Shown here in pieces: positions 5,830 through 53,942 of a DNA stretch of 64,000 nucleotides. The stretch is from a virus. Its lineage: Duplodnaviria > Heunggongvirae > Uroviricota > Caudoviricetes. Each line of letters begins with the position of its first letter. Within the stretch, counting starts at the first letter, position 1. Location: IMG/VR virus record IMGVR_UViG_3300035696_000002; one strand, 5' to 3'. A model generated the notes under the pieces. The model did not search any database. It saw nothing but the letters and a program-made list of their open reading frames with translations, and was not told the DNA's origin. The position numbers were made by a program, and so were the translations under genes.

Positions 5830-5965
5830 CGGAGTTCCCTTTCAATTTGCATTCGCCGCAGCCATTCTTGATGACTTCGACTGGTTTTGGATTATTGGGT
5901 GTGTGAATGCAGCGGCAATCCGCTATGATAGCACCACACGAACACTTGTAGGTGGTATGGGCCAC
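5804..5965 (-). CDS. Small Cys-rich zinc-finger protein (53 aa)
   Basis: Hand-translated from a GTG right after the upstream stop: MAHTTYKCSCGAIIADCRCIHTPNNPKPVEVIKNGCGECK... Confidence 0.65.
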   Translation of the reverse strand: MAHTTYKCSCGAIIADCRCIHTPNNPKPVEVIKNGCGECKLKGNSDGTQQPKE

Positions 5966-20109: not shown

Positions 20110-20117
20110 GATGCTCC

Positions 20118-23100
20118 TTACGGTTTCTGGCTGCCCACATCGGGCAACGGCTCTTCGGTTACGAGGTCTCCAAGGTAGCCTGCACCAAGATCAATCGGAG
20201 TTTCCTCACTGACATCGTCTCCCGCTGCGGCCTGTTTTTCATCGCTTGCGACTGCGAGCAGTTCCGGCACGGCCTCGGCCATTTCGCCGATAGCTGCCGG
20301 GCTGATCCCGCCCCCGCCGCTCTGATTCTGCTCTTGACCCTCGGGCTCAGGATGAGTGCTCATACCGTGCCCAGTGTCAACTACCGTGTCGGCGGTCTTC
20401 TTGCTGCTGCTCTTTCCCGAGTAATCCGGGACAACAGCGGGCTGCGGCGTGACTTCTGCCGGGCCAGAAGGTTTCTGACCGAACATTTCTTTCACCTTCG
20501 CGACGCCCTGTTCGAAGCTGCCATCCGCGTTGTAGCCCCAACCGCTGTAGCGTTCTTTCTTGCCGTTGAAGTTGATGACGCATAGTGCCGTACCAACGCT
20601 TTCACCGTTCGACATGTTACCCCAGTGGTAGCCCATGTCCCACGTGTTTGCCCCGTCACTGCCCTTCAACATGCCGCCACGGACGTACTCTGCGTTTACG
20701 CCAGCCGCCGTCAACTCACGCTGAATTTTCTTCAAGCTGTTGTAGGTGTAGCGAGCCTTTTCCTGCGGAGTTGCACCACGGCCTGCTTCGAAACGGATAC
20801 CAGCGAAGCGAGCGAAGTGTTCCGGGTTGACCGTTTTCTCGGCCTCCGGCTCATCCGCCATTTCGGACTTGTTGTAGTCGAGTTCCGACTTGGCTTCCGC
20901 CATGTCGCCGCTGATGTCAGCAGCAACCTTCGGGAACTGCATACCAGCCGCGTTACCGCGACGAGTGTAGAACGCCCGGATCGGGGCCAATGCACGGAGG
21001 AAATCCTTTTCCGTGATCTCAGCCTGAGGAGCATTCGTGTAGCGGTTACGCTGATTCTCTTCGCCGCGACGCAGGAGTTCCATCATCTGCTTCGCTGCCC
21101 GAGAAGGCGGCTGCCAGTAAGCCCAGCCATCGCTATGGCTGTTGACTTCGTCCATGAAATCCTTCATGAAGCGGGCTGCTTTACCGAGAACCGGGTCGTT
21201 GGCGAACCGCTGAACCGCTTCTTCGATGTCATACTGATTCATCCATGCAGTTTTCATGGAGCCAGTCACGTCGAACTTCGGCGTTTCACCTTGGGTGTCG
21301 CTGATGTCGGCCTTAGCCTTGTTCTCAATCGCACCCTCGCCGCCCTTTTCGTTGGCCGGGTTGTCTGCGGTATCGGCCTGTTTTTCTTGCTCAGGTGCTC
21401 CCGCTTCCGGCATCCAGTTGTCAAGGGCGTCGTACCAGTTCTTATCGACATCCTTGAAGCCACGAGCCTTCGCAATCGCCCTGAGGGCTGCTTCAATCTC
21501 AGGCTTCGTGTAGGGGTTGCCCGTGCGGTTTCCGCCCGTGACCCACTTCAACAGGTCGTACAGGACGCGATCAGGAATCTCCATCGCAACCTTGGACGCA
21601 GTGTTCTTGATTTCCGGCCCGCTCGTGTCTTTCACGTCAGTCCGGTTCTTGACTTCGATTGCACCGGAACCACCCGCCTCGTTGGCCGGGTTGTCTGCGG
21701 TGTCGGCCTTCTTCGAAGAGCCCGTCACGTCGTACTTCACAGTCGTGCCGTGCGTGTTCTTGATGTCGGCATCGGTCTTGTTGACGATGGCACCTTCGCC
21801 GCCCTTTTCGTTGGCAGGATTGTCGGCAGTGTCGGCCTGTTTTGTCGAGGCGTCGATGTCGAACTCTTCTTCACGAGGAGCAATCGGGCTCTCGCGATCT
21901 ACCCAGTAGGTGCCGCAGTTGCCGCACTGCCACTCACCCAGACCGGACGAGGAGCTAACGTGGTAAATGCGTTCATCCTTCGGCAGATCAAGACCGATAG
22001 GCTCTGAGCAGTTCTCGCAGTAGTTGACGTTATCCCACGAGTAGGCACAGACTGCACCGCAACGACCGCATTCAACGGCGTCGCCGCTGTCAAGGAGTTG
22101 TTCCTTGACCTGCTGTATGTCTACTTCATACCCCTCTGGATCAAGACCGAGGTCTGCAAGTTTGCCGAGACCCATTCCGATGCCAGCCATGTCGTCGGAA
22201 CCTGATTTGTTGCGGTTCCGAATAGCGGCGAAGTCGATACGCTGACCCGTGCCTTCGCACTGTGGGCAGTTGTCACGCTGGACACCCGGCTTGCAGGTGC
22301 AGGGTTGACCCGTCTTAGGCTGATATTCGGCCTTCTTGGACTCTTCGCTCTTGGACTTACCGCGATTCTTCGCCCACTCAGACTTTGGCCCGCTGTCTTC
22401 CTTGGCTTCAGGCGTCGAATCTTCCTGTGATTCTGCTTCGGAGTCAGACATCGACTTCGTGTCCTCAGGTTCGTCGCTCTTCATCTCTTCCGAGACGTGA
22501 GCTTCGCCATCCGTCGAGGAATTCTGACCGCCGTCGTTGCCGACCGGAATCAGCGGGGCAGGCCCGATGTCTTCCGTGATCGAATCCCAGATTTCATCGA
22601 GATCGACCGCTACGTCAGCTTCCTTGCGGAGGGTTGCGAGCTTGGCTTCTTTTTCCTGAGCAGCCTTTTTCGCCTTGGGCGACATTCCAACATACGGATC
22701 GTCGATTTCTGTTCCGATGATGTCGGCGATGTACGATGCCTGATGGGCAGCCGCAGACTTCAGCGTAGGCGTTGTGCCCCACTTGTCAGCGTCAATCTCA
22801 CCAGCATCCTTGCGGAAGAACTGGATCGCGAGCTTTACGGCACGCAACTTGTCAGTTGCCGACTTCGAGAGCGGCTGTTCGCCGTACCCGCCCGCCGCAA
22901 CTTCCCTTGCGTGGTCTTCGAGTGCCTGATCGGCCTGTTTGTCGCTGCCGAGAGTGGCACAGAAGGCCTTGATCCCATCCGGGTGCTCACGTTCGACGTA
23001 ACCACCGTTGCGGAATCTGTCCATTTCGAGCTTGGAGAGGTTGCCCTTTGCGTTGGTGCCCGGACGAATGTCCATTGTCGGCAACATACCCTTCGTTCTC

Positions 23101-24755
23101 TTCGCAACTTTGCGTTCCTCTTCGCCGCGACGAGCCACACCAGTTTCGTCAATCGCGATACCGATTGGGGCCTCGCCCTTGCGGACTTCGACCTTCTCTT
23201 CAACCGCCTTGACCATGCCTTCTTGTGCTTCTGCGGCACCAGTGCCCGGCCCGACGTTCGTGACCGGAGTTTCATGGGCAGCCGGGACGACGGAATCAGG
23301 AGTGGAACCGTGCTTGTGCGATTCCATGTTCTTCAAGCCTTCTTCAGCTTCACCCTTGGAGTGGAAACTTTCCAGAATCTTGTCGGTGTTGTGCTGCTTA
23401 ATGACCCACGGAGCGGATTCACCCTTTGAATTGGTGTGGCCCGGAACATGGGAGACATAGGCGACCTTGGCAGAGCTTTGGTGCGTCTTCAATCTGCTCT
23501 GTGTGACAGGGGCGTCGGCACCAACTGTCAGCGTGCCTTCGTTGTCGTAGTTGACGGGCTGGTCTTTGTACGCTTTGCCGACCTGATCGTAGAACACGTA
23601 GGTGTCCGTGTCGGGCTTGTATTCCATTTCCAGACCCATGGACTGTGCGATCTCGGCCATGTTCAGGTCAAGACGCTGCTCAAACGCATCCATGTACCCA
23701 CGCGGGTTCTTCTTTTTCATGTCCGCGTGAATCGCGTTCAGCTTGTCAATGATCGTTTGCAGGACATCCGCACCGCCCGCCATACCAATGCGGGTTTCGA
23801 TGGAGGCTGCTTCCTTGGATTCGCCCTTTTCTTCCTTTTTCTCGGAGCCGAAAGGCGGAGCTTGCTTCCCACCGAACGGTTCCTTGGCGGCTGCGGCACG
23901 CGGCACGCTTTCGCTTGTCGGCGGCTTGAAGCCCTTCTCGCCAACTTCGCCCGGCGTTACGCTGTTCGGCAGCAAAGACTGACGGAGAGCCTGATCGAGG
24001 GAGTCGAATACGTCCATCTCCTGCGGTTCAAGGACTTCCTGCGTCACTGCATCAGCAGTTTTGGCGGTCAGGAAGATTTTCTTCTTTGCAGTCGCGGCCT
24101 GCTTGAGCAATTCAGGGAACTGCTTCAGCGGATTTTCCGCGAGGAACGGGAAATTCATTTTCGGGGTGATGTCGGTCACGTCCAACTTGGTCGTGTCAAC
24201 AACCGTCATCAAGGCCTCAAAAGCCGAAGACAGGCGAGGATCGAAGTACGCCGCGAACACGATGTGGCGAAGCAGGTTCGTCAGCTTCGTGATATCATCC
24301 GTGTACTTGAAGTACTGGTACTCACGCTTGTTCATCCAGTTCGGTGCGAACAGGACGATGGATTCATACTTGCCATCGACGCTCTTGAAGAGCTTGTCCT
24401 TGATGGTCTGCAAATCGCCCTTGCTGTACTCGTCGAACTCGGTCTCGCCGATCTTGTGTTCGATCATGTCGGACATTTCTTCGCCGCCGAACTCACGCAT
24501 GAGGACGCCGTAGAGCAGGGAAGTCGGGAAGGTGTCGAGATTATCAGCAACCTTGGCAGGAACAATGAAGATGCGACCGATGGAGATGTTCTGGCGGAAT
24601 CCGCGATAGAAAACTTCGACAGACTGAGTATCGCCAGACGAACGGGCTTCCTTTTCGCCTGCCCTTACGGCTTCGGTGACTTTGGCCAACAGGTCTTCGC
24701 TGACAGCGAAGCTCTGGAATGATTTCAATGCGAGACTGTTTCCACTTGGAGCCAT
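20118..24755 (-). CDS. Putative internal head polyprotein (1545 aa)
   Basis: Folded N-terminal domain followed by many short modules separated by K-x-A motifs. Confidence 0.7.
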   Translation of the reverse strand: MAPSGNSLALKSFQSFAVSEDLLAKVTEAVRAGEKEARSSGDTQSVEVFYRGFRQNISIGRIFIVPAKVADNLDTFPTSLLYGVLMREFGGEEMSDMIEHKIGETEFDEYSKGDLQTIKDKLFKSVDGKYESIVLFAPNWMNKREYQYFKYTDDITKLTNLLRHIVFAAYFDPRLSSAFEALMTVVDTTKLDVTDITPKMNFPFLAENPLKQFPELLKQAATAKKKIFLTAKTADAVTQEVLEPQEMDVFDSLDQALRQSLLPNSVTPGEVGEKGFKPPTSESVPRAAAAKEPFGGKQAPPFGSEKKEEKGESKEAASIETRIGMAGGADVLQTIIDKLNAIHADMKKKNPRGYMDAFEQRLDLNMAEIAQSMGLEMEYKPDTDTYVFYDQVGKAYKDQPVNYDNEGTLTVGADAPVTQSRLKTHQSSAKVAYVSHVPGHTNSKGESAPWVIKQHNTDKILESFHSKGEAEEGLKNMESHKHGSTPDSVVPAAHETPVTNVGPGTGAAEAQEGMVKAVEEKVEVRKGEAPIGIAIDETGVARRGEEERKVAKRTKGMLPTMDIRPGTNAKGNLSKLEMDRFRNGGYVEREHPDGIKAFCATLGSDKQADQALEDHAREVAAGGYGEQPLSKSATDKLRAVKLAIQFFRKDAGEIDADKWGTTPTLKSAAAHQASYIADIIGTEIDDPYVGMSPKAKKAAQEKEAKLATLRKEADVAVDLDEIWDSITEDIGPAPLIPVGNDGGQNSSTDGEAHVSEEMKSDEPEDTKSMSDSEAESQEDSTPEAKEDSGPKSEWAKNRGKSKSEESKKAEYQPKTGQPCTCKPGVQRDNCPQCEGTGQRIDFAAIRNRNKSGSDDMAGIGMGLGKLADLGLDPEGYEVDIQQVKEQLLDSGDAVECGRCGAVCAYSWDNVNYCENCSEPIGLDLPKDERIYHVSSSSGLGEWQCGNCGTYWVDRESPIAPREEEFDIDASTKQADTADNPANEKGGEGAIVNKTDADIKNTHGTTVKYDVTGSSKKADTADNPANEAGGSGAIEVKNRTDVKDTSGPEIKNTASKVAMEIPDRVLYDLLKWVTGGNRTGNPYTKPEIEAALRAIAKARGFKDVDKNWYDALDNWMPEAGAPEQEKQADTADNPANEKGGEGAIENKAKADISDTQGETPKFDVTGSMKTAWMNQYDIEEAVQRFANDPVLGKAARFMKDFMDEVNSHSDGWAYWQPPSRAAKQMMELLRRGEENQRNRYTNAPQAEITEKDFLRALAPIRAFYTRRGNAAGMQFPKVAADISGDMAEAKSELDYNKSEMADEPEAEKTVNPEHFARFAGIRFEAGRGATPQEKARYTYNSLKKIQRELTAAGVNAEYVRGGMLKGSDGANTWDMGYHWGNMSNGESVGTALCVINFNGKKERYSGWGYNADGSFEQGVAKVKEMFGQKPSGPAEVTPQPAVVPDYSGKSSSKKTADTVVDTGHGMSTHPEPEGQEQNQSGGGGISPAAIGEMAEAVPELLAVASDEKQAAAGDDVSEETPIDLGAGYLGDLVTEEPLPDVGSQKP
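21260..21845 (-). repeat. Three intragenic copies of K-x-A-DTADNPANE(K/A)GG(E/S)GAI
   Basis: gttggc(c/a)gg(g/a)ttgtc(t/g)gc(g/a)gt(a/g)tcggcct near 21351, 21681 and 21810. Confidence 0.85.
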
Positions 24756-24764
24756 GGTTTCCTC

Positions 24765-25283
24765 TTATTCCTTGCCGTAGTAGCTAGAATCAATTTTCTG
24801 AACTTCACGGCGAATCTCAGGATCGACTGCCGCCATTTCATCCTTGTAGTGCATCAGGATGTTCTTGGCCTGTCCGTCCTCAACGCCTGCCTTCTTCATC
24901 GCGATCTTGAACTTGGAGACCCACATGTCCGAGACGTATTGGAACTTTGGCCCGTCGAGATTGATGTAATCTCGCTTAGCCATCTGGTCGGACTCCATAA
25001 GCTCTTTGCCAAGCTCACGAAGTGCCCTGACCTGCGATTCCAATGCCTTAGTCGTGCCGAACTGGGTGACATCAATGTTGTCGCCCTGCCGGATCATCAT
25101 CTCCGTCGCCACTGCAATTTCGTAAGCGATCATACGTTTCAAGTCGCCGAGTGAAATGCTCGGGTCTTTGATCGCCTGACGGATGACGACAATGCTGCTG
25201 CCCTTCTCGCGGTCGCTTAATTCGCGGTCGCCGAGGCCGACGTAGCCTTCCGATGATGTGACAATCTCGAACTTATCGGCCAT
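24765..25283 (-). CDS. Helical hypothetical protein (weak terminase small subunit candidate)
   Basis: 172 aa, all-helical/coiled coil, upstream of terL in the same operon; function not established. Confidence 0.4.
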   Translation of the reverse strand: MADKFEIVTSSEGYVGLGDRELSDREKGSSIVVIRQAIKDPSISLGDLKRMIAYEIAVATEMMIRQGDNIDVTQFGTTKALESQVRALRELGKELMESDQMAKRDYINLDGPKFQYVSDMWVSKFKIAMKKAGVEDGQAKNILMHYKDEMAAVDPEIRREVQKIDSSYYGKE

Positions 25284-25285
25284 GA

Positions 25286-27145
25286 TTACTCCACGTCCAA
25301 TTTGTACGTGCCGTCCATCTCAACTTCCGCACGTTCCGGGCCGTCCATCGGGATATCCTGCTGCACCGCTGGCCCCATCAGATCGTACTCACCGAGGATG
25401 GCACGCCCGTCTTCCGGGGCACCAGCCGCAGTCTTGTGATTGGACGATGCCTTGTCCATTCCGGGATAGCTCAACAAAGTTCCGCCCGTCAGGCCGCAAT
25501 GCATGCCGCTGCGATATGTGCACGATCCGCACTTTTCCGCACCGATGATCGGATTGTGTACGCCCAACTTGTTCTTGAGGTACGTGCAATCAATCTGGCT
25601 CAGAGCAACCTTGATTGGCTTGTCTTTCAACGAAGCGACGAACTTGCGGCATGCTGCACCCGCCTGCTCGGCCCCGACCTTGTTGGCGGCGGCTTCGTAA
25701 ATTGCTTTCATGCCGTAGCCCTTGTTGTGCAACCGCTCAACATCAGCGGCGGCAAACTTGTACACGGCCTTCTTCGGCTGTTCCTTACGTACCGTTTCAA
25801 TGGTGCGTTCCTGAGATGCCGCCTGTTTTTCCTGCGGCAGAATGCTCATCGGACGCTCAAACGGCTTTGTCGTTACTTCCCGAACCTTGCCGAAATGGCT
25901 CTCACAGCTTGCACACTTGGCACTGCTCTGGAAAGCAGCGTTGCGGATGCCCTTCTTGGCGAGGAATTCGAGGTCGCTTTTTGCGACCACAATCCGGCCC
26001 GCGTCATCCTTGCGGAGTGAAGCGACAAAGTTCTTGATCGCTTTGCTCACATCCACATCGTTGAACTTCTCGCTCGCCCATTTGTAAATGCGGTCGAGGC
26101 TGGCTCCGGCTGCGTGCAGCTTCATCACGTGACTGGAGTCGAAAACAACTTTCGATGTTGCACGCTTCACACGCTCGGCCTGCTTGATGTCATACCCTTC
26201 AGTACGGGCAATCGCTGAACTGGTCTTCGGCGGCAGGACTTGCATGTCGGTGCGATTTGCGATCTGCACCAGTGCCGCACGCTTGTTCTTGTTCGGCACG
26301 CCCGGCGTCAAGAGGTTCACGATATGTGAAAGCTCGGCTGTGTTCGCTACAACTGGAAGGTGGTACAAATTACACGACTTGCCTGATGCGTCCTTCTTGA
26401 AGTAAGAGCAGTCGGTGCACGCTGAAATCTGTTTTACCGACTTGGCCTGCGGCGTAATGCCTGCCTGCTTCCATTGGTTATGCTGGCGGACACAATCATT
26501 GCTGCTGACGCTGCTGTTTTTGCCGCGAGGAGCGTCCTTCGGCATGTAAGTATTCGGCTCCAGATATGCCAAGCCCATGAGCCCGGCGTTACGCTGGAGG
26601 TAGTCCGTTGACATCTGGTGATTGAACACCTCAAGATCAGCGGCCATCTTTTCGATGATCTGTGCAACCTTCGCCGGAGATGTGCCCTGATTCAGCAAGT
26701 CCCTCACGTACTTCAGAGCTTGCCCATCAGTGATGCCCGTCGAGACGCTGTTCTCTTTGAAGTTTGGATCGGCCTTCTCAAGATTCATCGTCACTTCGTC
26801 CATCAACGACTCGTTGTCGCCGTAGGAATTCTTGTAATCCTCAGGCCGGGTTGTCGCAGTGCGACGCCAGTCTGAGGGGACTGAACTCACGTGTGGGGCA
26901 GCCTTTTCTTTTTCGTACAGGCGTTCACGAAGAACTGAACTGGTTCTCGGGCCGATAATAGGCGTGTGGTGAGAGGCCGACTCAGCGATTTCATCCATGA
27001 AATCCTTGTCCACGTACTGGTGCGTGCGGTTAAGCTGCTCCTCACCGGAGTCCTTGGCCTCGGCGAGATCGAGGTCTTTCCAATCGGGCTCGCGTTCATC
27101 CAAGAGTGCGTCGATAATGCTTGAGTAGGGTTTCTTCTCTGCCAT
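25286..27145 (-). CDS. Cys-rich putative head protein with internal repeats
   Basis: Repeated CxxC...C clusters and duplicated V..LH..G.....IY..A..K...A...FVASL helices; K/R-x-A junctions. Confidence 0.65.
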   Translation of the reverse strand: MAEKKPYSSIIDALLDEREPDWKDLDLAEAKDSGEEQLNRTHQYVDKDFMDEIAESASHHTPIIGPRTSSVLRERLYEKEKAAPHVSSVPSDWRRTATTRPEDYKNSYGDNESLMDEVTMNLEKADPNFKENSVSTGITDGQALKYVRDLLNQGTSPAKVAQIIEKMAADLEVFNHQMSTDYLQRNAGLMGLAYLEPNTYMPKDAPRGKNSSVSSNDCVRQHNQWKQAGITPQAKSVKQISACTDCSYFKKDASGKSCNLYHLPVVANTAELSHIVNLLTPGVPNKNKRAALVQIANRTDMQVLPPKTSSAIARTEGYDIKQAERVKRATSKVVFDSSHVMKLHAAGASLDRIYKWASEKFNDVDVSKAIKNFVASLRKDDAGRIVVAKSDLEFLAKKGIRNAAFQSSAKCASCESHFGKVREVTTKPFERPMSILPQEKQAASQERTIETVRKEQPKKAVYKFAAADVERLHNKGYGMKAIYEAAANKVGAEQAGAACRKFVASLKDKPIKVALSQIDCTYLKNKLGVHNPIIGAEKCGSCTYRSGMHCGLTGGTLLSYPGMDKASSNHKTAAGAPEDGRAILGEYDLMGPAVQQDIPMDGPERAEVEMDGTYKLDVE

Positions 27146-27155
27146 GGCTGTTTCC

Positions 27156-27473
27156 TTAGAAAGTTAGGTCGTCCAAGATCGAACCGAGAAATTCCATCGG
27201 CTCATCCTTGGGTGCTGCCGGGATCGCTTCCCCGTTGTCAACTTCGTCCACTACGAGTCGGACAATTTTGGTGCCCTGAACCTGCCAGAAATCCTTCGTC
27301 GAAGGACATTCATACACATTCCCGGCGACCCGACGCATCATGAATTCGTCGATCTGGCTCTGAATACTGAGGGGGATCGGAGTCGCAGAAGCAAAGTGAT
27401 TTCGGGAAAAAACGGCCTCATTGGCCCGCTGGGAGCCTAAACCGAAAGCTGGTGTGGGACGAGTCTTACGCAT
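27156..27473 (-). CDS. Hypothetical protein
   Basis: 105 aa with GAGG RBS and upstream ACTATG motif. Confidence 0.6.
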   Translation of the reverse strand: MRKTRPTPAFGLGSQRANEAVFSRNHFASATPIPLSIQSQIDEFMMRRVAGNVYECPSTKDFWQVQGTKIVRLVVDEVDNGEAIPAAPKDEPMEFLGSILDDLTF

Positions 27474-27575
27474 ATAGACCTCTCATCTAGGGGAAGCATA
27501 GTTACAAAGTTCCAAGAAAAACCCGAAAACCGTTTGAATAAAAACCGCTTTTCGCCCCTATTACAGAGGAACCCC

Positions 27576-28451
27576 ATGCAGACAATTAACAACACAATTT
27601 TTAGCTCAACAGCACCCGCCGATGGAGCATGGCGAAATATCTCGAATTTTGTGGCAATGTCGGTGCAAATCAGCACCACCTCAGCCGGGGCACCTTCGGC
27701 TTTCGACGCTGGGAACGTATGGATTGAGCTTTCCAACGACCCGAACGTCCTACTGGACGGTGCAACTATCGCCGCCCCCTCCGCCCCGACACTCAGCCAG
27801 TTCACACCCAATTATTCAGCCGGATACGGCAATGCGTCGCCGACCGTGGCCACGACCTACTCGGTACAAGTCACTTACGTGACCGCGTTTCCGAAGGGCA
27901 CCGTGCCCCTCGGCACTACTCAACCGGGCGTCCTGATTCCACCGCCTGAGACGACAGCCTCCGGCACGACTGCCCTGCTCGTGACCGCAGGCAATCAGCT
28001 TATCGTCGCCTCTCCGGCAGCCGATCCGCTCGGCGTCGCAACCGGGTACAACGTCTACATCAGCGTTGGCGGCGGGCCGTACATCTTGCAAAACTCTTTG
28101 TTCAACAGTATGGTCGGCCCCGGCAACCTGAAGGTCAACGGCCCGATTCCGCTGGGCGAACCGTTCTACCTGTTTGCCTACACCAACTCCGGCGTGCAGC
28201 CGCCTGCTACGAACACAACGGGCAGCCCGAACGTCGGCGTCAATGCAACCGGAAATATTTCGACTGGCGGCTTCAACAGCGACGAGTCGGTGCTATACTT
28301 TGACAATCCGACTGCCGCAGGAGCTTGGACAGCATCAAGCACCATGGCAATCTGGTCGCCATCTTGTCTGTACTTCAACTATCTCCGCGTCAGAAAATCG
28401 ACAGCGGGTACGAAGCTGACACAGGCGTATTTGTTCGGCCAGAACGGTTAA
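27576..28451 (+). CDS. Putative virion surface protein (beta-rich)
   Basis: T/G/P/S-rich; APSAPTLS...TYSVQVTYVT...ET...ATGYNVY module; start re-called after GAGGA RBS. Confidence 0.65.
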   Translation: MQTINNTIFSSTAPADGAWRNISNFVAMSVQISTTSAGAPSAFDAGNVWIELSNDPNVLLDGATIAAPSAPTLSQFTPNYSAGYGNASPTVATTYSVQVTYVTAFPKGTVPLGTTQPGVLIPPPETTASGTTALLVTAGNQLIVASPAADPLGVATGYNVYISVGGGPYILQNSLFNSMVGPGNLKVNGPIPLGEPFYLFAYTNSGVQPPATNTTGSPNVGVNATGNISTGGFNSDESVLYFDNPTAAGAWTASSTMAIWSPSCLYFNYLRVRKSTAGTKLTQAYLFGQNG

Positions 28452-28470
28452 CGAGATACCCGTCAGACCA

Positions 28471-28698
28471 TCAAAAGACCGGATTACTTTCCGGCCAGTG
28501 TGCGATTGGCACATGCAGAACTCCATGGTTCAGTTCTGTACCATCGCGGGGCCGCTCGGCAGGGCGGGTGTGAGTCGCGGCCCAACCTATTTCGTGGAGG
28601 TGCCCCATGGACGAAGAATTAAAGCGGTTGCTTGGCACCAGTTTGGTTATCGTCCTTGGAGCTTGTATCAGCACCGGGATTCTTCTCTCCGCCATCAT
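28471..28698 (-). CDS. Hypothetical small protein
   Basis: 75-aa ORF overlapping the EndoVII-like tail and filling the gap. Confidence 0.35.
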   Translation of the reverse strand: MMAERRIPVLIQAPRTITKLVPSNRFNSSSMGHLHEIGWAATHTRPAERPRDGTELNHGVLHVPIAHWPESNPVF

Positions 28699-29140
28699 CT
28701 GGGTTGTTGCTCGTTACCTTGGCGAACTTATTCAACTGCTCGGCAGCATTCAATAAAAACTCTGGATTTTCCTTGAAGTTGTCCAATCCCTTGTCGCAAC
28801 TCGTGCAAAGGAGTTTCTTCACTTGCCCGAAGACGTGAAGGTGCGTGCCGCGATTGTAGAGGGCTAGGGCGGCTCCGCAGATCGCACACTGTTTGTTCTG
28901 GGAACGCCAAAGCTCCAAGTAGTCGTTCGGTTTCATGTTGTACTTGGCCGCGAGCAAGGCGTCGTAGGCCTGCACCTTTCCCCAGAACGTGCCGCCGTAG
29001 GAATTATGGCAGGTCTTGCAGTAATCCTGCTTGCCACTCGCGGTGCGTTTGTTCTCCCCGAAGGCGTCCAAGGGCAGCCATTTTTCGCACTTATTACACC
29101 ACTTCTCTTTGTCGTTGAACAGTCGTTTGCGTCCCCGCAT
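28619..29140 (-). CDS. Endonuclease VII-like protein, probably degenerate
   Basis: N-terminal KWCNKC...CKTC; CAICG...H.H..G.V..LLCTSCDKGL; GGAGG RBS. Confidence 0.8.
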   Translation of the reverse strand: MRGRKRLFNDKEKWCNKCEKWLPLDAFGENKRTASGKQDYCKTCHNSYGGTFWGKVQAYDALLAAKYNMKPNDYLELWRSQNKQCAICGAALALYNRGTHLHVFGQVKKLLCTSCDKGLDNFKENPEFLLNAAEQLNKFAKVTSNNPDDGGEKNPGADTSSKDDNQTGAKQPL

Positions 29141-29230
29141 AATCCCTCCTTCAAAACCCCTAATTAAGCATTTGAAATTAGCTGAATTTCTGACCGTAGG
29201 TAGAGGACATTTCCTCGAAGGACAAACATC

Positions 29231-30358
29231 ATGGGAGCACCTGTACTACAAACAACCAATTATGGTTTCCCGGCTCAGTACGCATCGAAGGTCGAGAACC
29301 TTTGGCCGAATCAACAGGGCGACAACGCATACGTCACAGCCTCGGCTGGTGACTGCCTCATCGCCGTCGCAATCGGTCTCAAGAGCTACGATCCGTTCGA
29401 TCTGTTTCACGGCTCCAGCCCGGTAACCCCGGCTGGCTGGGCGGCGGGTCTGAACGATTTCAATGCACAGCCCACCATCACGGACGGCTCCAGCGAGTCA
29501 TCCACGATCAGCAACATCGCTGAAACCGCTGGCAACGTCGTGACCTTGACGGTCTCGGCTGGTCAGTGGCAAGCTGGCGACCGCGTCAACCTCAGTGGTT
29601 TGACGACTGGCACGTGGCTCAACGGACAGAACCTCAGCTTGATCGCTGGCACATCCAGCACGTCACTGGTCTTCAATGACCCGACAATGCACGGTCTTCA
29701 GGCTTCGCACGCTGAGACAGGCACCGCAACGGAACTCGGCGGCAACGTTTGGACGCTCGGTTCCAGCATCAAGATCGCGGACTCAGACTACACGGTCTCG
29801 TCCGTTCCTCCGACTGCTCCGAACCCCTATCCTTCCAGCAAGTGGAGCCTTGACGGCTACTACCCCAGCATCTACATCTGGGTCGCTGAGAACGTACAGG
29901 GCGGCACCTACAAGGTCAACCTGAACTCCATGTACCAGCCGGGCATCACTGCCCCGCAGGACTGGTCGGGTGGTTCAGTGCCGATCTTCGACGGCGGCGT
30001 CAACTTCGGCGTGACCCGGTTCACGGGCATGACGGCGGTTGCGGCAGACGGTTCGACCACGGGCATTTCGTCCGCGAACCCGGCTGTCGGCTCTCCGGCA
30101 ATCGTCACCACGGGCACGGGCGACCTCGTTTTCGTCGTCGGTCTCCAGAAGAGTGCCAACGGCCTCGGCCTTGGTACAGACGCGACCTTGACGGCTCCGG
30201 GCTACAGCCGCGTGTTCAACGGCAAGCTGGTCGGTTCGGAAGCTCACTACCTCGTGCAGTGGGGCATCCAGACGGCGGCAGGCTCTTACACGCCGCAGTT
30301 TGCTAACCCGCTCGGCTACGAGACGGTACTTGCAGCAATCGCCCTGTCGCACTCATAA
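29231..30358 (+). CDS. Putative virion surface protein
   Basis: 375 aa beta-rich; contains one copy of the repeat domain found in the 39479 gene. Confidence 0.7.
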   Translation: MGAPVLQTTNYGFPAQYASKVENLWPNQQGDNAYVTASAGDCLIAVAIGLKSYDPFDLFHGSSPVTPAGWAAGLNDFNAQPTITDGSSESSTISNIAETAGNVVTLTVSAGQWQAGDRVNLSGLTTGTWLNGQNLSLIAGTSSTSLVFNDPTMHGLQASHAETGTATELGGNVWTLGSSIKIADSDYTVSSVPPTAPNPYPSSKWSLDGYYPSIYIWVAENVQGGTYKVNLNSMYQPGITAPQDWSGGSVPIFDGGVNFGVTRFTGMTAVAADGSTTGISSANPAVGSPAIVTTGTGDLVFVVGLQKSANGLGLGTDATLTAPGYSRVFNGKLVGSEAHYLVQWGIQTAAGSYTPQFANPLGYETVLAAIALSHS

Positions 30359-30380
30359 CCTGAGTAGGGCACAACGCGAA

Positions 30381-30413
30381 GCGGGCTCCCAAACCGGGAG
30401 CCCGTTTTTATTT
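30381..30413 (+). terminator. Intrinsic terminator
   Basis: gcgggctccc/gggagcccgt followed by TTTTATTT. Confidence 0.85.
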
Positions 30414-30509
30414 GTCGCGAATCCGCTGAAATCCTGAAAAATCCGGTATTAGATATTGCGAACAATGGGTCAATAAGTCAAAATTTCCCATTTTTACTGG
30501 CAAAAATTC

Positions 30510-31247
30510 ATGAGCGAGAACACCCCGTACTTTGATTCCATCACATCCGCCCGTGCCATGCTCCTCAACGAAGAGGATCAGCTTGAAGGCACGACAACCA
30601 TCTCACTCGAAACTTGCAGCGACCTCGCCGAGGAGGATATCCTTACCTACGTGCAGGAAAATTTCGCAGAATTTCTGCGGATGCTCCGCTTCCTGAAAAA
30701 AGAGGATCAGGAGCTTTTGCTCTCGTACTACCTCTTGTCCAAAACCCAAAACACTCTCGCGATCATCCACAAGAGCACACAGACTGTATGCTCATTCCGC
30801 ATTCGCATGGCGGTGAAAGTGCTGGGAACGTTCATCATGATGGGTGAGCCCACGGCAGAAAAGATGCACGGAATTCTCGCCAAGGCCGGAGTTGAGGAAG
30901 GATTGGAGAAGGTTCAGCTTTCAAAAGTCGTAGAGTTGTACGCGAAGACCAGATCATTCCAGCGGATCGCAGAAATCTACGGCCTGCATCGCCCGGATAT
31001 TCGCCGTGCCATGAGCCGGGCATCCAAGCAGCTTATGGAGTCGAAAGACGCCCACGAGCACGCCATCGGAGCCTACATCCACTCCCTGATTGACAAGGCC
31101 AACCCCAGCGGCACCGGATATAGTAAGCGGAAAGTGTCGAAGCTGGGCCACATCTACCGCGTTGACCCGCCACTGCTCGGCGAATTCCGCATCAAGGTCG
31201 ATAACCCAGACTTCGACCACATGTTCGTCAGCCGGGCAAATCGCTAA
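30510..31247 (+). CDS. Sigma region-4-like / double-HTH transcription regulator
   Basis: LRFLKKEDQELLLSYYLLSKTQNTLAIIHKSTQTVCSFRIRMA and RSFQRIAEIYGLHRPDIRRAMSRA. Confidence 0.65.
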   Translation: MSENTPYFDSITSARAMLLNEEDQLEGTTTISLETCSDLAEEDILTYVQENFAEFLRMLRFLKKEDQELLLSYYLLSKTQNTLAIIHKSTQTVCSFRIRMAVKVLGTFIMMGEPTAEKMHGILAKAGVEEGLEKVQLSKVVELYAKTRSFQRIAEIYGLHRPDIRRAMSRASKQLMESKDAHEHAIGAYIHSLIDKANPSGTGYSKRKVSKLGHIYRVDPPLLGEFRIKVDNPDFDHMFVSRANR

Positions 31248-31250
31248 AAC

Positions 31251-31275
31251 AAAAAGGGGACGCTTAGCGTCCCCT
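31251..31275 (-). terminator. Intrinsic terminator between convergent genes
   Basis: aggggacgc/gcgtcccct stem with T-run on the minus strand. Confidence 0.75.
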
Positions 31276-31302
31276 CAGTTCTTCGTACACGTGGTACGTG
31301 AA

Positions 31303-32490
31303 TTACATTGCACCCGGAGGTGTCTGCTGCGGCTGCCGTTTCTTCCTCGGCCCGCCAGTGCCCATCACGTAGTTGACGAAAGTCTCTTCGTCAAACCGTG
31401 GGTTGTCTTGCAGTAGGGGCTGGCTGATGCGACGAGCAAAGGCTTCACGTGCTTCGGGAGCCATCGGAGTTTCCTTGATGGCGTCGGCGATCATGATGTA
31501 GTCCTTGCGGGACATGGCCTTCTTGATGATCGAGGTCAAAACTGCCCCGATTTTCGAAGACATCTTGTTGACTTCAGATTCACCCTGTGCCTGCGGAATG
31601 TCCTTCACGAAAGAAGGAGCGGGTTCGCCGTCCATCACACCACTCTGCTTGTTCACTTCGGATGAACCCTGCGATTGCGGGATGTCAGCGACGAAATCAC
31701 CAGCGGGCTTCTTCACTTCGCTGATGCTGTATTCCTGCTTGGTGGGTTCCTGCTCGGCTCCACGCTTGTTGCCACGCTTGTTGCCCTCGGCTTCGCCCTG
31801 TGCCTGCGGAATGTCCAGCTTGCCCGGCGTGCGGGGCTGGCCGGAATGGTCGCGATCATCGACGTAGGCGTCAGAGCCGGAACCTTCCTTGGCTTCCTCT
31901 TCATCGCCCTTTTCAAAGCTCGGAGTTTCAGGAGCAGCCTCTTCGACAACTTCCTCTTCCTTAGCTTCAAAACTCGGGCCTTCCTCTTCGGCTACTTCCT
32001 CGCCCTTCTCTTCACCCATTTCAAGCTCGTGCTTGCCTTCATCGGTGAATGCCTGTTCGGTCGGAGTCGCACCCAGATCAATACCGAGTGCTTCGGCGGC
32101 GATTTCCATGGCGGCTGCCTGTTCGTCGAGAGCCTTGTAGGCTTCCTGAAGGGCTGTTTCCAGCATATCAGGCTGCTCTTCGGCGAGCTTCTTCAGGCCA
32201 ACGCCGTAGTTCTTGGCAGCGGCAATACGGACGGCTGAGGACGCACCCTTGGGGGCACGAACGAGGTCACAGTGATCCATCAGATTCTCGAAGCCATAAG
32301 CCATCTTGTTCGCCGTCACGGCGATAGAACGGAACAGCTTTTCCAGCTTCTCCGGGGCCTTCTGGGCGGTCTGCTGCATCTTGGCATACTTGGAGACCTT
32401 CTCGGTCTTCCGTGCCTGCCTACGGGCCGCGATGCGGGCTCGAAGGGCTTCTTGCGGGGTTTTCGTCGTTTTTGCTGCCATTTTCCTCAC
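31303..32490 (-). CDS. Putative head scaffold-like/internal polyprotein
   Basis: Helical N-terminus, acidic linker, DIPQxQG repeats and C-terminal KKA|MSRKDY...DNPRFD module. Confidence 0.65.
   Translation of the reverse strand: MRKMAAKTTKTPQEALRARIAARRQARKTEKVSKYAKMQQTAQKAPEKLEKLFRSIAVTANKMAYGFENLMDHCDLVRAPKGASSAVRIAAAKNYGVGLKKLAEEQPDMLETALQEAYKALDEQAAAMEIAAEALGIDLGATPTEQAFTDEGKHELEMGEEKGEEVAEEEGPSFEAKEEEVVEEAAPETPSFEKGDEEEAKEGSGSDAYVDDRDHSGQPRTPGKLDIPQAQGEAEGNKRGNKRGAEQEPTKQEYSISEVKKPAGDFVADIPQSQGSSEVNKQSGVMDGEPAPSFVKDIPQAQGESEVNKMSSKIGAVLTSIIKKAMSRKDYIMIADAIKETPMAPEAREAFARRISQPLLQDNPRFDEETFVNYVMGTGGPRKKRQPQQTPPGAM
31561..31815 (-). repeat. Three intragenic DIPQ(A/S)QGxxExNK repeats
   Basis: DIPQAQGEAEGNK, DIPQSQGSSEVNK and DIPQAQGESEVNK. 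Confidence 0.8.
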
Positions 32491-32511
32491 CTCAACTAAA
32501 GGATTTGATAG

Positions 32512-35500
32512 TTACTCGGTTTGTGGGGCGTCAACTTGGGACGACCCCTGATTCGGAAGGTGAGGCGGGGTAGTGAAAACCCCAAAATAAATCTCATCTT
32601 CATGGTACTGCTGGTGGTACTTATCGTACTGAGCTTCGGCTTCTTCCCGTGTATCGAACACGTTGAACCAAACCTCAACGCCCTCATCCATCAACACGAA
32701 CCACTTACCGCTTACATTCGTCGGTTTGTGGTGTGTGATCTCGGCCCCAGTCTTAGACGGCACCGGAGTCGATTCAACCGCACTGCCGATCATAGCTTCC
32801 ATCTCATCAGGAGGAATCGGCGTGCCGCCAGTATCTTCGATCCACAGATTGACCATGCCCAACAGGCCACGGCAAACAGCGTTCATGTCTTCCATGTCCA
32901 CGCCCGGCTCCGGGAAGGCACCAAAAACCGCCTTACCCTTCGCTGAACTGAACTTGAAATATGGCCCAAGGCCCTCAGCTTCGTTTTGGCTGTTCATTCC
33001 CTCGACGAGGTAGTTGATCGCAAGACGCAATTCCTGCTTGGCCCCCTCCGCTGCTCCGGGGAGTACCGTGTCGAGAATCGTATAGGCGTTGAGCAACTGA
33101 CCGAGGACTTCACTCTGGGCAGTCTTCTGCGAAGACGTGTGCCCCTGATCGCTCAGGAACCCATCGGTCTGCTCTTCCTCACTGATGTCAGGAAGTTTTT
33201 GATCCGGGTGATATCCGTAGAAATCCATCCATTCACGGATGTGGGGCTCTTCCCCACGGCCATCACGAATAGCCTCATCAACCATGTCCTGCATGTAGAC
33301 GTTGCCGTCCGTGGTCAGAGGATTTTCAAGGAACACACCGCACTTATCACAGTGCTGCGGGCCGTCTGCGGCACCGCCGCCGTTCGGGTATGGGCCTTTC
33401 GGGTAATCGTCCGAGTCGAACGTGTGCTCATCAGCCGGATTCGCCGGAGGCTGCAACTGCTTCATGGTCTCACGGGCACATTCGTCGCAGACGAGGGCTG
33501 CCTGATAGATGTATGCCTGCTTGCTCGCGACCTTCGCGACTTCTAGTCCGCCCAAACTTGCCATATAGAACCTCTGATTCGGTAACTCCGGTGGGATGTG
33601 CTTCCTCTCTGGCTGCTTCGGAGGCTCGCCAGCCCCGGAGCCACTTTCCGGGTCTTGCTGATTCAGCAAAATGGAAGTCATCGGCCCCTGTTGCTGCTGT
33701 TGCTGGGCATTTTCTTGCGGAACCGCAGCACCGCCAGCGGGGGCACCGACACCAGATTGGGCGGCTTCCTTCGAGGCTGTTGACGACAACTGATTGTTCT
33801 CCACCTGACTGAAATCCTGACTGTACGGATTCACCGGGTCTTGTGCCTGCGTGTCCGACACCTCGCGATCACTTACTTCGTTGCTCGGATTCCGAGGTGC
33901 AACGTAAGGAGCATTCGGCGAATGTGGGCCGGGCTCGGTCAGATCACTGCCTACACGCACACGTCCAGTCGTATCCGAGTGCATTTCGCGACCCGTATCA
34001 CCCGGCATAGTCTGCGGACGAATGGCGTTGTAGAAATCGTGGCCGAGGTCGCCCTCTTTCAACATGCCGCCCTCAACTTCCTTCCTGTACGCATCCCATT
34101 TCTGATCTTCAGGAACGCCCGGCAGATGTTCTCCGCCGTCCTTGCACGGACGCAGGTTGCACGTTACGCATTCAAGGCAACGCGGGCAGTACAGATGCGT
34201 GCGGTTGGCAATCTCCCAGTCCTCTTCTGCATGCTGAGGCTCTTCAGAGACATCGTCCAAGCCTTCCCAATAGCCTTCGGGCCGCTGCAACTTCAGCCGT
34301 TCAGCTTTTTCTTCAGGACTCTCGTCCGCTTTCTTGGGATAAAGCTTCTCCAACGTCTCGTCGAAATTCTTACTGTAGACCGGGCATTCCATCTTGTGGT
34401 GCCCCGTAACAGAACCGCAGCACGGCAATGCCGGGCCAAGGGAAGTAGCCCGCTTGTCCGAGGTCATTTTAACCTGCCGTTGTGGGTTGTCATCCTGATC
34501 TTGCTGTACCTGTTGCTGACCTTGAGGCGTATTGACTTGCTGCGGGCCTTGCTGATCGACTTGCGGAGCTTGCTGATCGGCGGGGACTGCATCAACTTCG
34601 TCAGTGATGGTCATCTGGTTTTGGGTTGGCGTTTGAGATACCGTTTCGCCCTTACCGGAGAGCAGATTCATCGCTGAAATTCCAGTTGTGACCGCAACGG
34701 AGAGCACAAGCTGCTGGGCAGCGAGTTTCCAGAACGCTCTGAAGCGGTCTGTGCCCTGTTGCTGGGCGTAGCTATCCAATGTCGCAAGGGAAGTAACGCC
34801 CTTCTTCTCCAAAATGGATTCAGCTTTCTGAACGAGCGAGGAGCCGTCGCCAAAATATTCCTGCCACTTATTGCCCAGCCACTTGCCAAGCATCAACACA
34901 ACCCACGACCCAAGGAGGGTTGCAAGCTGCGGATCGAATGCGGCTTTCTTCGGGTGCCGTGATTCAAGCTTCTTGCGTACCGCTTCGCGATCTTCTGATT
35001 CCTCACGCACACCATTGACGTATGCGTAGTACACGGTCTTACCGTCACGCATGAGTTCGCCAATTTCTTCTCGGCGATCATCTGCATACGCCTGCTTGTC
35101 CATGGCGAATAGGTGGTTAATCGAGGCAGCGTGCTGGCCTTTCCACAACGGGAAAGCATGTTGCGGACGCTTCAAACGCCCGTCATTCGTGAAATTGAAT
35201 GCGTAGTTACGAATCCACTCGTCGTCCACGATCATCGGAATGACTGGGTGATTGTGCCCTTCCGCTGCGGCGTCAGCCACGAACGGATTGTTGATGTCAC
35301 AATTCGGGCATTCTTTCCATGTCTCAGCCCGGTGCGGGTTGTCCTTTGTCCACCGACGCGGGAAAGCATCCAATACCTGCTCACGCATCTCTGGTGTGAG
35401 TTCATCACCACGAATAAGGCGAGCGGTCTTCGTACTGCCATTCTTCACGCCTGAGTCCATATCCTGATACGCAGAGAGGTAGGCGTCAAGTGAGGCTGTA

Positions 35501-48976: not shown

Positions 48977-49936
48977 TTAGTTCTCGCCGTAGTTGGCGGC
49001 AGCGTTGAAGCGACCGTTGACCGTGAGACGCTGAACACCTGACGGGTTGAAGATCAGGAAGCCCAGAATTTCGAAGATGCTGAAACCGATCTGACGGAGG
49101 TCAGGACGGTCGGCAGACATGACGGTGAGCGGCACACGTTCCGGGATAACACCGAGGAATTCGGCGTCCGCCAGAATGTAGATCGAGCCGTAGCCGACCT
49201 TACGAGACTGGAGGAGCGTCGCACCCCACAAGTACCCCATCACGCCCGTTTTCAACAGCTTACGCTGGGTTTCGCGGTCGATGTTCTGCTGAGTCCACTT
49301 CAGCAAATCCGTGTAATCACGGGGATTGAAGAAGACGAACGCGACAGACAAGTCGTGACGCTGAACCTGCCCAAAGCCATCGGCCATCGAGTTGATGTCG
49401 ATAGGAGCATTGATCGGAATGTCCGGGTTGTAGACCGGATCGTTGGAGGCGTGCGTTGCAGCCGAGGATGCAACCGCGTCGAACAGGGAGAAGACGTATC
49501 CGTCCTCAGCCGCACCGACTTCGGCTTTCGCCAAATTCAGTGAACGAGCAACGAGGTCGAAACGACGTTCCTTGATCTGCGTGATCGGAATCATCGGGTT
49601 GGACACGATTTCGAAAGTCGGAACCGTGACACGCTTTGGTTTGGTGACGCGGACGATGTCGCCGCCTTCTTCACCCACGACGAAGGCTTCCACGAAGGAC
49701 GAGCCGGGGGTCGAGCCCACGGTCATTGCCGACGTGTCAAATTCCTTATCGTAGATGGGCAGGGCACCATCAGGTAGGGTTTCGACCATCAATGCCTTGC
49801 GGGCAATCGACATATAGTCGCGGCGACGACGGAGCGAAGGCCCCAACGAAGCGGCGAGCTTCTGACGACCACCAGCGGTCTTGAGCAACTGCCCAAGCAT
49901 CGCGGTCTGCTGTTGTGTACGTGAAAGGTTTGCCAT
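48977..49936 (-). CDS. Major capsid protein (HK97 fold)
   Basis: GRQKLAASL...RRDYMSIARKALMVETLPDGALPIYDKE...VPTFEIVSNP...RRFDLVAR...AAED; lies after protease and scaffold; start re-called to MANLS (AGGAG RBS). Confidence 0.88.
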   Translation of the reverse strand: MANLSRTQQQTAMLGQLLKTAGGRQKLAASLGPSLRRRRDYMSIARKALMVETLPDGALPIYDKEFDTSAMTVGSTPGSSFVEAFVVGEEGGDIVRVTKPKRVTVPTFEIVSNPMIPITQIKERRFDLVARSLNLAKAEVGAAEDGYVFSLFDAVASSAATHASNDPVYNPDIPINAPIDINSMADGFGQVQRHDLSVAFVFFNPRDYTDLLKWTQQNIDRETQRKLLKTGVMGYLWGATLLQSRKVGYGSIYILADAEFLGVIPERVPLTVMSADRPDLRQIGFSIFEILGFLIFNPSGVQRLTVNGRFNAAANYGEN

Positions 49937-53002: not shown

Positions 53003-53919
53003 TATCGCCTCAGGTGCCCTTTTGGGTCTTCGTCCAGAAGAACGTCGCCTACTGTAAGGGCTTCAAAGTCAGTCTTTTCCGAGGCCGCTTTGGCGAAGGA
53101 CGCAGTATTAGTGGCTTCCTCCAAGGCTGCCTTCCGGGTGTACGGGGATTTCGGCCCCATCCACTCATCCGCCACGATGTTCCGTTTGGCGGCTCCGGGG
53201 AAGGCCGGGGTTGCTACCCAGCTTGCTTCCACGAACTTAACCCCACCGTTTTCCATGGTTTTGTGGCCGCAAAGTTCAGCGACCCGGCGTGCGACGCCGT
53301 CATCGTCCGCAAGGAACATGCCCTTCTGGAACGACAGGTGGTTGCAATAAGTGTTCTGATCGGTGACGTGGGCTCCGCAATAAGAGCAGATGACGAGGTC
53401 AGTCACGCAGCCCATGGACAGGTAGCGGACTTTGCCTTCGCGGATATCGTTCACCAGCTTCTCGTGCGTCATGTCGGTCGCCACGAGGATGTCGCAGAAG
53501 TAAACCCAGATTTGCTCTTCGGGAACGATCTGGACTTTACGAAGGACGGCATCGAGGATGTGCCCCTTCGCGTACTTGGAATTCTGGAAGTGTTCGACGA
53601 AGTTGAAAGCCCCGACGAAACTGCGGTGCGACAGCTTCAACACCTCGTTCGTCCATGCGTCATCGTTGTTGTTTACGAGGTGACTGCATTCCGGCTTGAT
53701 GTGATAGTCAAACGGGTCTGCCTCGGTCATGACCGAGGACATGATCGTGCAGTGCGACAAAATATACTTCGAGGAGTCCGCAGCGAACTTCGAGAACGAC
53801 GCGGTCTTGTGCCCGAACGTGCGGGTGCCGTACATCTTGTCCCAATCGGGAACAGAGAGAGTGGGCTCCTTCAATTCGGCGTTCGCGTATTTCTTGAAAG
53901 CTGGTTCTTTTTCGGACAT
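53002..53919 (-). CDS. Prohead (capsid maturation) protease with Zn-finger insert
   Basis: NNNDDAW, FVEH (His), LSMGC (Ser), CSYC...CNH, FVEASWVATPA; start re-called to MSEKE. Confidence 0.82.
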   Translation of the reverse strand: MSEKEPAFKKYANAELKEPTLSVPDWDKMYGTRTFGHKTASFSKFAADSSKYILSHCTIMSSVMTEADPFDYHIKPECSHLVNNNDDAWTNEVLKLSHRSFVGAFNFVEHFQNSKYAKGHILDAVLRKVQIVPEEQIWVYFCDILVATDMTHEKLVNDIREGKVRYLSMGCVTDLVICSYCGAHVTDQNTYCNHLSFQKGMFLADDDGVARRVAELCGHKTMENGGVKFVEASWVATPAFPGAAKRNIVADEWMGPKSPYTRKAALEEATNTASFAKAASEKTDFEALTVGDVLLDEDPKGHLRR

Positions 53920-53942
53920 TTTTGTCCCTCTACTTAATAGGC

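Follow-up and report, generated by a model that had tools for sequence, protein, structure and literature searches.

The stretch analysed here, called the window throughout, comprises 64,000 nucleotides (nt) of the IMG/VR virus record IMGVR_UViG_3300035696_000002 and corresponds to bases 143749–207748 of a single 463,033-bp contig with 55% G+C, a soil phage genome of jumbo-phage size. The minus strand of the window carries the late-gene block, in which several giant open reading frames (ORFs), situated among the terminase, capsid, protease, tail fibre and tail sheath genes, code for proteins built of small modules bracketed by the motif Lys-x-Ala (K-x-A). They are designated P0001 (1545 amino acids (aa); 20118..24755), P0004 (1758 aa; 32512..37788) and P0003 (1057 aa; 53943..57116), and are accompanied by a 395-aa ORF, P0002 (31303..32490), all on the minus strand. 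A sequence-only reading of this DNA had proposed that the modules beginning with Met directly after the motif are whole genes captured together with their start codon. The four sites it named are confirmed by translation of the minus strand (the slash marks the presumed cut): K-V-A/MEIPD with the first residue at 21584, K-T-A/WMN at 21245, K-K-A/MSRKDY at 31515, and K-Q-A/MNAPQ at 56063. The nearest cultured relative of the phage is Tunturiibacter phage Tunturi_5 (309 kb, host from Acidobacteriota), while IMG/VR also contains a sister phage of 455.7 kb (IMGVR_UViG_3300032770_000001); remoter relatives with a common protease, capsid or sheath comprise an uncultured 485-kb phage (LR745208), Bacillus phage G, and the cluster C mycobacteriophages.

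In P0001, variable modules lie between an N-terminal domain and a C-terminal tail that are both conserved; the protein contains 29 K-x-A motifs against 13.3 expected. Its residues 3–287 show 42% identity to the start of Tunturi_5 gp350, annotated in its record as a DarB-like antirestriction protein. The orthologues of P0001 share both ends and the same two spacer types and differ in the modules. In some of them the N-terminus reads M/GVSGNS, in others a short leader ending in K-x-A precedes the same GVSGNS, and a cut after Ala would therefore equalise the N-termini. The protein also contains spacer repeats of ca. 43 residues, each running from directly behind a K-x-A to the end of the following one. 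The first two copies (residues 975–1057; 21585..21833, minus strand) are each flanked by K-x-A, while copy 3 (residues 1128–1170; 21246..21374, minus strand) begins right after K-Q-A and ends with K-T-A; the three copies are 71–80% identical at the DNA level over 85 nt. The same spacer type lies ahead of the WMN module in orthologous polyproteins. Residues 427–486 of P0001 (23298–23477 in the window) have a counterpart in the sister phage inside a separate 1058-aa frame (73% identity; G001:C1:388473-388652).

The WMN module (residues 1171–1278 of P0001; 20922..21245, minus strand) is a complete copy of a member of the PHROG 22197, or S-D-G-W, small-protein family. In a scan of the whole 1545-aa protein, positions 1–102 of the phrog_22197 profile (E 8.2e-14) align with residues 1172–1275, and membership in the family is further indicated by S38, D39, G40, W41, and W44, which are invariant in 71 sequences. 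An exhaustive search, made with a 221-residue query overhanging the module on both sides (E <= 1e-3), matched 623 clusters of homologues. Among the best 150 of these clusters, 131 are represented by proteins of at most 300 aa, and 122 of these 131 start within −1 to +3 residues of Trp1171; at the other end, 34 of the 53 proteins of up to 125 aa among the same 150 terminate within about 5 residues of the module end. The stand-alone C-termini coincide with the next K-V-A. Searches with tblastn also led to phages of Arthrobacter and Microbacterium, in which annotated stand-alone genes begin just where the match does; the product of one such gene has 108 aa, exactly the module length. Folded alone, the module is predicted to form a five-helix bundle with a mean predicted local distance difference test score (pLDDT) of 96.8, and is therefore considered a complete folding unit. 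A Foldseek comparison of the module with the PDB returned nothing at E <= 0.001, and a look-up in the ESM Atlas yielded unnamed clusters only. The likeness to helical bundles, among them the CheA P1 domain (best VIA-align Z of 7.3), was dismissed as lying within the noise range for helical proteins.

Stand-alone members of the family begin with M-(x)-[FWY]-M-N, whereas the window copy is intact from the aromatic residue onward and has lost the initiator. Judged by this alignment, the initiator is overwritten by the motif, and the Met noticed in the sequence-only reading is a conserved internal one; the module thus stands as a whole captured gene, as had been supposed, but not as one retaining its original start codon. 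Two other polyproteins do keep the initiator, in the form K-x-A/G-MWMN (e.g., K-N-A/G-MWMN). In 11 other polyproteins of the clade, K-x-[AG] lies 0–2 residues ahead of the [FWY]-M-N of the module and P-K-L-[AG] follows it. The latter is a remodelled form of the stand-alone C-terminus, while at the N-terminus the stand-alone proteins have M-(x) in place of the motif. The WMN module is also present in seven giant proteins of 2351–6732 residues (P0034, P0040–P0042, P0049, P0074, and P0141), where it lacks K-x-A edges and the junction is often I-P-[RN]-G-[ST]-W; these proteins are a second, separate polyprotein lineage using the same small gene family.

The MEIPD module (residues 1058–1127 of P0001; 21375..21584, minus strand) lies between spacer copies 2 and 3. 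A search among proteins of similar length matched one cluster, whose 61-aa protein P0159 is 63% identical to the module and has the same Met-Glu-Ile-Pro-Asp start. The gene of this protein is found on four soil-metagenome contigs, within arrays of genes coding for 45–170 aa. A long GGAG-type ribosome-binding site lies immediately ahead of it, and the distance to the preceding gene is 50 nt. The 61-aa protein stops 11 residues short of the next K-Q-A in the window copy. Neither the sister phage nor Tunturi_5 nor the 485-kb phage LR745208 has the module. Since the stand-alone protein begins at the same Met, the proposal of a whole gene captured with its own start codon holds for MEIPD, and, as far as the comparison with its single known counterpart goes, the initiator Met is the residue that survives directly after K-V-A.

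The converse direction of transfer, in which stand-alone genes were released from polyproteins and Met after the motif enabled the release, is improbable. It draws on the fact that the trees are unrooted and poorly supported, and that just one stand-alone MEIPD cluster is known. The stand-alone WMN forms, however, dominate among the homologues in the numbers given above, and are found in actinobacteriophages of 60–186 kb within arrays of small genes of unknown function. Moreover, the closest relative of the window WMN copy is a stand-alone 112-aa gene product, P0009 (66% identity), encoded within a small-gene array beside PAPS reductase and SNF2-type helicase, while the embedded copies are at most 55% identical to the window copy. 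In a quick unrooted tree with most forks unsupported, the embedded copies appear in at least three places among the stand-alone ones.

Capture of whole genes behind K-x-A is, by the same kind of homology evidence, extended to modules without an initial Met, two of which are found in P0004, whose N-terminus resembles Tunturi_5 gp345, annotated as a virion structural protein. The first (residues 1426–1557; 33118..33513, minus strand) is Met-free and 46% identical to XM05_117 (132 aa) of an Erythrobacter phage; the match, obtained in a search with the whole P0004, begins exactly after K-Q-A, the first three residues of XM05_117 being replaced by the motif. The second (residues 566–696; 35701..36093, minus strand) lies between K-V-A and K-E-A. 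Positions 8–120 of the 137-position profile phrog_17808 align with residues 570–679 of P0004, and its extrapolated ends fall 3 and 0 residues from the K-x-A cuts.

Together with WMN and MEIPD, these modules form a mosaic of four, spread over two ORFs, each with a different stand-alone protein or family as its match. Six of the eight homology-defined ends given by the four stand-alone counterparts lie at most 3 residues from a K-x-A cut, which was equalled by none of 200,000 random placements. According to these alignments, no fewer than four modules reproduce in full a small gene that other phages carry on its own.

P0003, encoded immediately upstream of the protease gene, contains 17 K-x-A motifs against 7.5 expected and is syntenic with Tunturi_5 gp328, annotated in its record as a DNA ejection protein. 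Three consecutive modules were distinguished in it, all on the minus strand. A GNAT acetyltransferase module (residues 236–351; 56064..56411) between K-T-A and K-Q-A matches Pfam PF00583 with 25.4 bits against a cut-off of 20.7, as well as phrog_30890 and phrog_3082; it is followed by the Cys-rich MNAPQ module (residues 352–405; 55902..56063) and by a Zn-ribbon module (residues 406–452; 55761..55901), which travels with MNAPQ. The MNAPQ module recurs with 83% identity on another phage contig (L030), where it is embedded in a P0004-type polyprotein and again preceded by S-K-Q-A, while the Zn-ribbon module is ca. 80% identical to a module inside the P0004 orthologues of the sister phage (1682 aa; L008 1962–2117) and of L030. 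Module content varies between relatives, and modules shift between polyprotein genes. Pfam scans of the polyproteins and of single modules gave GNAT only, and Pfam and PHROG scans of the four ORFs gave GNAT and families of unknown function only, no profile–profile search having been made.

The MSRKDY module (residues 326–395 of P0002; 31306..31515, minus strand) is a C-terminal add-on to the 395-aa protein, whose residues 34–139 resemble the C-terminal part of Tunturi_5 gp345. The latter (667 aa; L018 6001–8004) joins the N-terminal domains of P0004 and of the 395-aa protein, and the two window genes are only 21 nt apart; therefore, from this synteny, they look as though a single unit had been divided and modules inserted into it. 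MSRKDY matches an internal stretch of the 1112-aa gp92-type proteins (such as Gizmo gp92) of about 200 cluster C mycobacteriophages, in which R-T-A/G sites lie on both sides of the module. In the sister phage, MSRKDY follows S-K-V-A/Leu (CTG) in a frame different from that of the upstream 254-aa ORF. A 65-aa "stand-alone" MSRKDY gene, retrieved in a word-indexed search, was rejected as this frame-shifted sister-phage copy called from its second Met. Hence neither MSRKDY, which had been said to resemble a small stand-alone phage protein, nor MNAPQ fits the proposal of a captured stand-alone gene, as both matched long fusions only, unlike MEIPD and WMN, whose stand-alone counterparts have N-termini aligned with the motif. 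Nevertheless, despite the fusion-only matches, the boundaries of both modules line up with K-x-A, and a low-confidence model of the region around K-K-A in the 395-aa ORF (mean pLDDT 66) gives a weak hint that the folded part begins right after K-K-A. MSRKDY and MNAPQ are best described as mobile modules with Met as a conserved first residue, for which an origin as a start codon is unproven. Of the general proposal, then, whole-gene capture behind K-x-A stands, while the retention of the original start codon applies strictly to one module and nearly to a second.

The sister-phage copy of MSRKDY deserves a separate comment. The 254-aa orthologue of P0002 ends with ...GGGAG-T-CTT-TAG-C (L008 6754–6766), while MSRKDY is read on from C-TTT-AGC in the +1 frame. 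The junction has the layout known from bacterial prfB, whose programmed +1 frameshift relies on a CUU-U-stop slippery arrangement with an upstream Shine–Dalgarno-like element. Since the split arrangement recurs in several samples, on eight contigs in all, it may be a regulated fusion rather than an error.

The same copy bears on the possibility that the Met-start modules are nested genes translated from an internal ATG, the long ORF being incidental or a second product. It is, as noted above, off-frame from the upstream ORF and called as a separate gene, and AAG(G) lies 6–9 nt ahead of some of the ATGs. That purine run, however, is the Lys codon of the motif itself, and the MEIPD copy in the window lacks the strong ribosome-binding site that lies ahead of its stand-alone counterpart. 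Moreover, Met is not enriched after the motif, the aligned residue in the sister phage is Leu, and the WMN module starts with Trp; translation of nested genes is thus very improbable, the least probable of the explanations considered.

Beyond the module edges, K-x-A is a property of the head region as a whole. Summed over six head-region proteins it occurs 112 times against 53 expected, with p <= 0.001 in a shuffle test for five of the six, while the control motifs A.K, R.A, K.G, K.S, and E.A reach 0.7–1.0 of expectation in these proteins (0.94 for E.A, which is thus not enriched). When 540 ORFs of the 463-kb genome were ranked, the top five K-x-A excesses all fell within the window. The residues favoured directly after the motif are Ala, Asp, and Ser. 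The head maturation (prohead) protease gene (53002..53967, minus strand) is recognised by its family (phrog_18299, E 5.6e-16) and by its position next to the scaffold-like and capsid genes; its product is 56% identical to Tunturi_5 gp331 and has K-x-A sites close to both ends. The adjacent gene (50747..53002, minus strand) codes for a 751-aa scaffold-like protein, the counterpart of Tunturi_5 gp332, with 24 K-x-A motifs against 12.3 expected; it gave no match in a Pfam scan. The major capsid protein (48977..49936, minus strand; phrog_2522, E 9e-43) has K-T-A and K-L-A at residues 19–28, and these motifs are conserved in Tunturi_5 gp334 (72% identity) and in gp88 of mycobacteriophage ET08, whose capsid protein is just 24% identical; the protease sites are likewise kept in Tunturi_5. 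K-x-A is also found at the N-termini of several further head-block proteins. A short motif is therefore common to the cargo, the capsid N-terminus, the scaffold-like protein and the protease, as is characteristic of head proteins processed by a prohead protease, and by its distribution K-x-A is probably the cutting site of this enzyme. In cluster C mycobacteriophages, the protease domain forms the N-terminus of a 1286-aa protein (ET08 gp86; L016 1959–5819), whose C-terminal third is rich in [KR]-x-A and which looks like a protease–scaffold fusion.

The distribution of the motif is also what weighs on an alternative in which the giant proteins are uncleaved multidomain polyvalent proteins whose modules act joined, K-x-A being a linker or junction such as a recombination footprint or a docking motif. 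Some polyvalent proteins are indeed packaged or transferred unprocessed, e.g., the N4 virion RNA polymerase, ArdC, and TraC1 (PMC5512222), and the seven giant proteins mentioned above, of 2.3–6.7 thousand residues, hold the WMN module without K-x-A edges. On the other hand, the capsid protein has the motif at its N-terminus, the protease at either end, and the scaffold-like protein in high density, all of them classic protease substrates; the motif is conserved at the capsid and protease sites in distant relatives having the same protease family; the reversed motif A.K is not enriched; and some orthologues of P0001 differ at the N-terminus solely by a short leader that ends in K-x-A. Joined action of the modules is accordingly considered unlikely, although less so than either release from polyproteins or nested translation.

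The reading we favour, with a probability of about 0.6, is that the giant minus-strand ORFs of the head block code for cargo polyproteins, whose modules are freed by the prohead protease and ejected. The conserved N-terminal domain and C-terminal tail would ensure the entry of the polyprotein into the prohead, and between these ends would lie a changeable string of small self-contained modules bracketed by K-x-A. Inside the prohead, the adjacently encoded protease would cut after Ala (P3 = Lys, P1 = Ala); the spacers would be cleared, and the freed small proteins would accompany the DNA on its exit and become active in the host immediately. What other phages have to express from an early gene would in this way be delivered as finished protein.

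Several observations weigh against this interpretation. Met follows K-x-A at 3 of 110 sites, against 3.2 expected by chance, and each case has therefore been judged by homology. In the 395-aa ORF taken alone the motif is not enriched (7 against 5 expected, p = 0.2), and in the mycobacteriophage gp92 the conserved Met of the MSRKDY-like module is preceded by the Lys-free I-H-A. Stand-alone forms of two modules were not found: IMG/VR and metagenome scans for MSRKDY gave only the sister phage and two mycobacteriophages, and the IMG/VR search for MNAPQ gave only another polyprotein. The protease matched by sequence neither a Pfam family nor a solved structure. The presumed virion location of the polyproteins is deduced from synteny and from predicted Tunturi_5 annotations; the direction of transfer is unrooted, and what appears to favour capture over release is the numbers together with a weakly supported tree. 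In the literature, no report of a K-x-A prohead-protease site was found, nor was virion proteomics found for Tunturi_5, phage G or the cluster C phages.

A further-reaching and more tentative idea, which we hold to be possible but somewhat doubtful, is that the K-x-A and spacer cassette constitutes a general "address and cut" adaptor, making the polyprotein genes of jumbo phages in this clade an integron-like platform with a fast turnover, by which early anti-host or anti-defence genes taken from other phages would become proteins delivered in advance. Any small ORF placed in frame between two cassettes would then be loaded into the capsid, released by the protease, and injected, and the start codon of MEIPD would be the footprint of a fresh insertion.

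Processing of this kind has precedents. The T4 internal proteins IPI–III and Alt have a capsid-targeting sequence, are loaded into the prohead, trimmed by gp21, and injected with the DNA. The window system resembles them in the small size of the effectors, in prohead loading and in a short motif common to capsid and scaffold, although cutting and packaging are here predicted from the genes. It differs from them in that T4 uses a separate gene with a short leader for each cargo and the site (L/I)-x-Glu, whereas here many cargos are encoded per ORF and the site would be Lys-x-Ala. Sites with Ala at P1 are known from herpesviruses, in which the capsid maturation protease assemblin cleaves the maturation and release sites (V/L/I)-x-Ala/Ser; the likeness lies in the specificity at P3 and in the Ala at P1, and the difference in the hydrophobic P3 residue there versus Lys here.

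In the phages phiKZ, 201phi2-1, and SPN3US, head and ejection proteins and the protease carry (S/A/G)-x-Glu, cut by gp175 or gp245, and extra sites break the propeptides into small pieces (PMC5694885). These phages, too, are of jumbo size (myoviruses), and the protease motif is borne by many of their head and ejection proteins as well as by the enzyme. However, P1 is Glu there and Ala here, strings of captured whole genes have not been described among the phiKZ-type processed proteins, and the window protease belongs to PHROG 18299 and to no Pfam family. The enriched motif of the window proteins, K-x-A, does not fall within the (L/I/S/A/G)-x-E cleavage class, and the predicted system works like the processed head proteins of T4 and phiKZ yet is outside their specificity class. 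Polyvalent proteins, in turn, are mosaics of 2–15 unrelated domains, GNAT among them, encoded near virion genes and thought to be delivered together with the DNA, and many of their domains also exist as solo genes (Iyer et al. 2017, PMC5512222). The window ORFs share with them both the unrelated domains having solo counterparts and the location among late, virion genes. Processing of polyvalent proteins is ascribed to their own metallopeptidase domain or is absent; no such domain was found here in the Pfam and PHROG scans, made without a profile–profile search. A conserved K-x-A and spacer cassette brackets each module here, and the modules are mostly tiny and of unknown function.

The late-gene block also comprises the genes of the large terminase (15118–17166, minus strand), of a fibre-like protein of 1775 aa, and, at the far end of the window, of the tail sheath (60838–63999, minus strand), 44% identical to its Tunturi_5 counterpart. 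A megablast comparison of positions 20000–32500 with phage records gave zero matches at the DNA level, and a tblastn search with the polyproteins against the whole 463-kb genome revealed no significant paralogue, the 53-aa ORF at 5804–5965 included. The minus-strand head block is broken up by an island at 27534–31247, which contains an endonuclease VII or HNH-type gene at 28619–29140 (phrog_2633, E 1e-24) and plus-strand ORFs of 375 and 245 aa without a family match; the island may be a mobile insertion between the polyprotein genes. Next to it, at 25286–27145, lies an ORF of 619 aa without a family match, with 16 K-x-A motifs against 6.2 expected (rank 4 in the genome), whose product is probably a further head protein with predicted processing.

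If the cargo reading is correct, there are two routes by which one and the same small protein family enters the host: ordinary phages make it from an early gene, and some jumbo phages would bring it as capsid cargo cut from a polyprotein. This would help to interpret hundreds of small phage families whose function is unknown, since being chosen as cargo argues for action in the first moments of infection, in take-over of the host or counter-defence. It would also provide a candidate Lys-x-Ala specificity for the prohead proteases of a clade including phage G, the cluster C mycobacteriophages and Tunturi_5, and a natural model for equipping phage capsids with foreign proteins. Finally, it suggests a route by which phages turn early genes into proteins shipped in the capsid.

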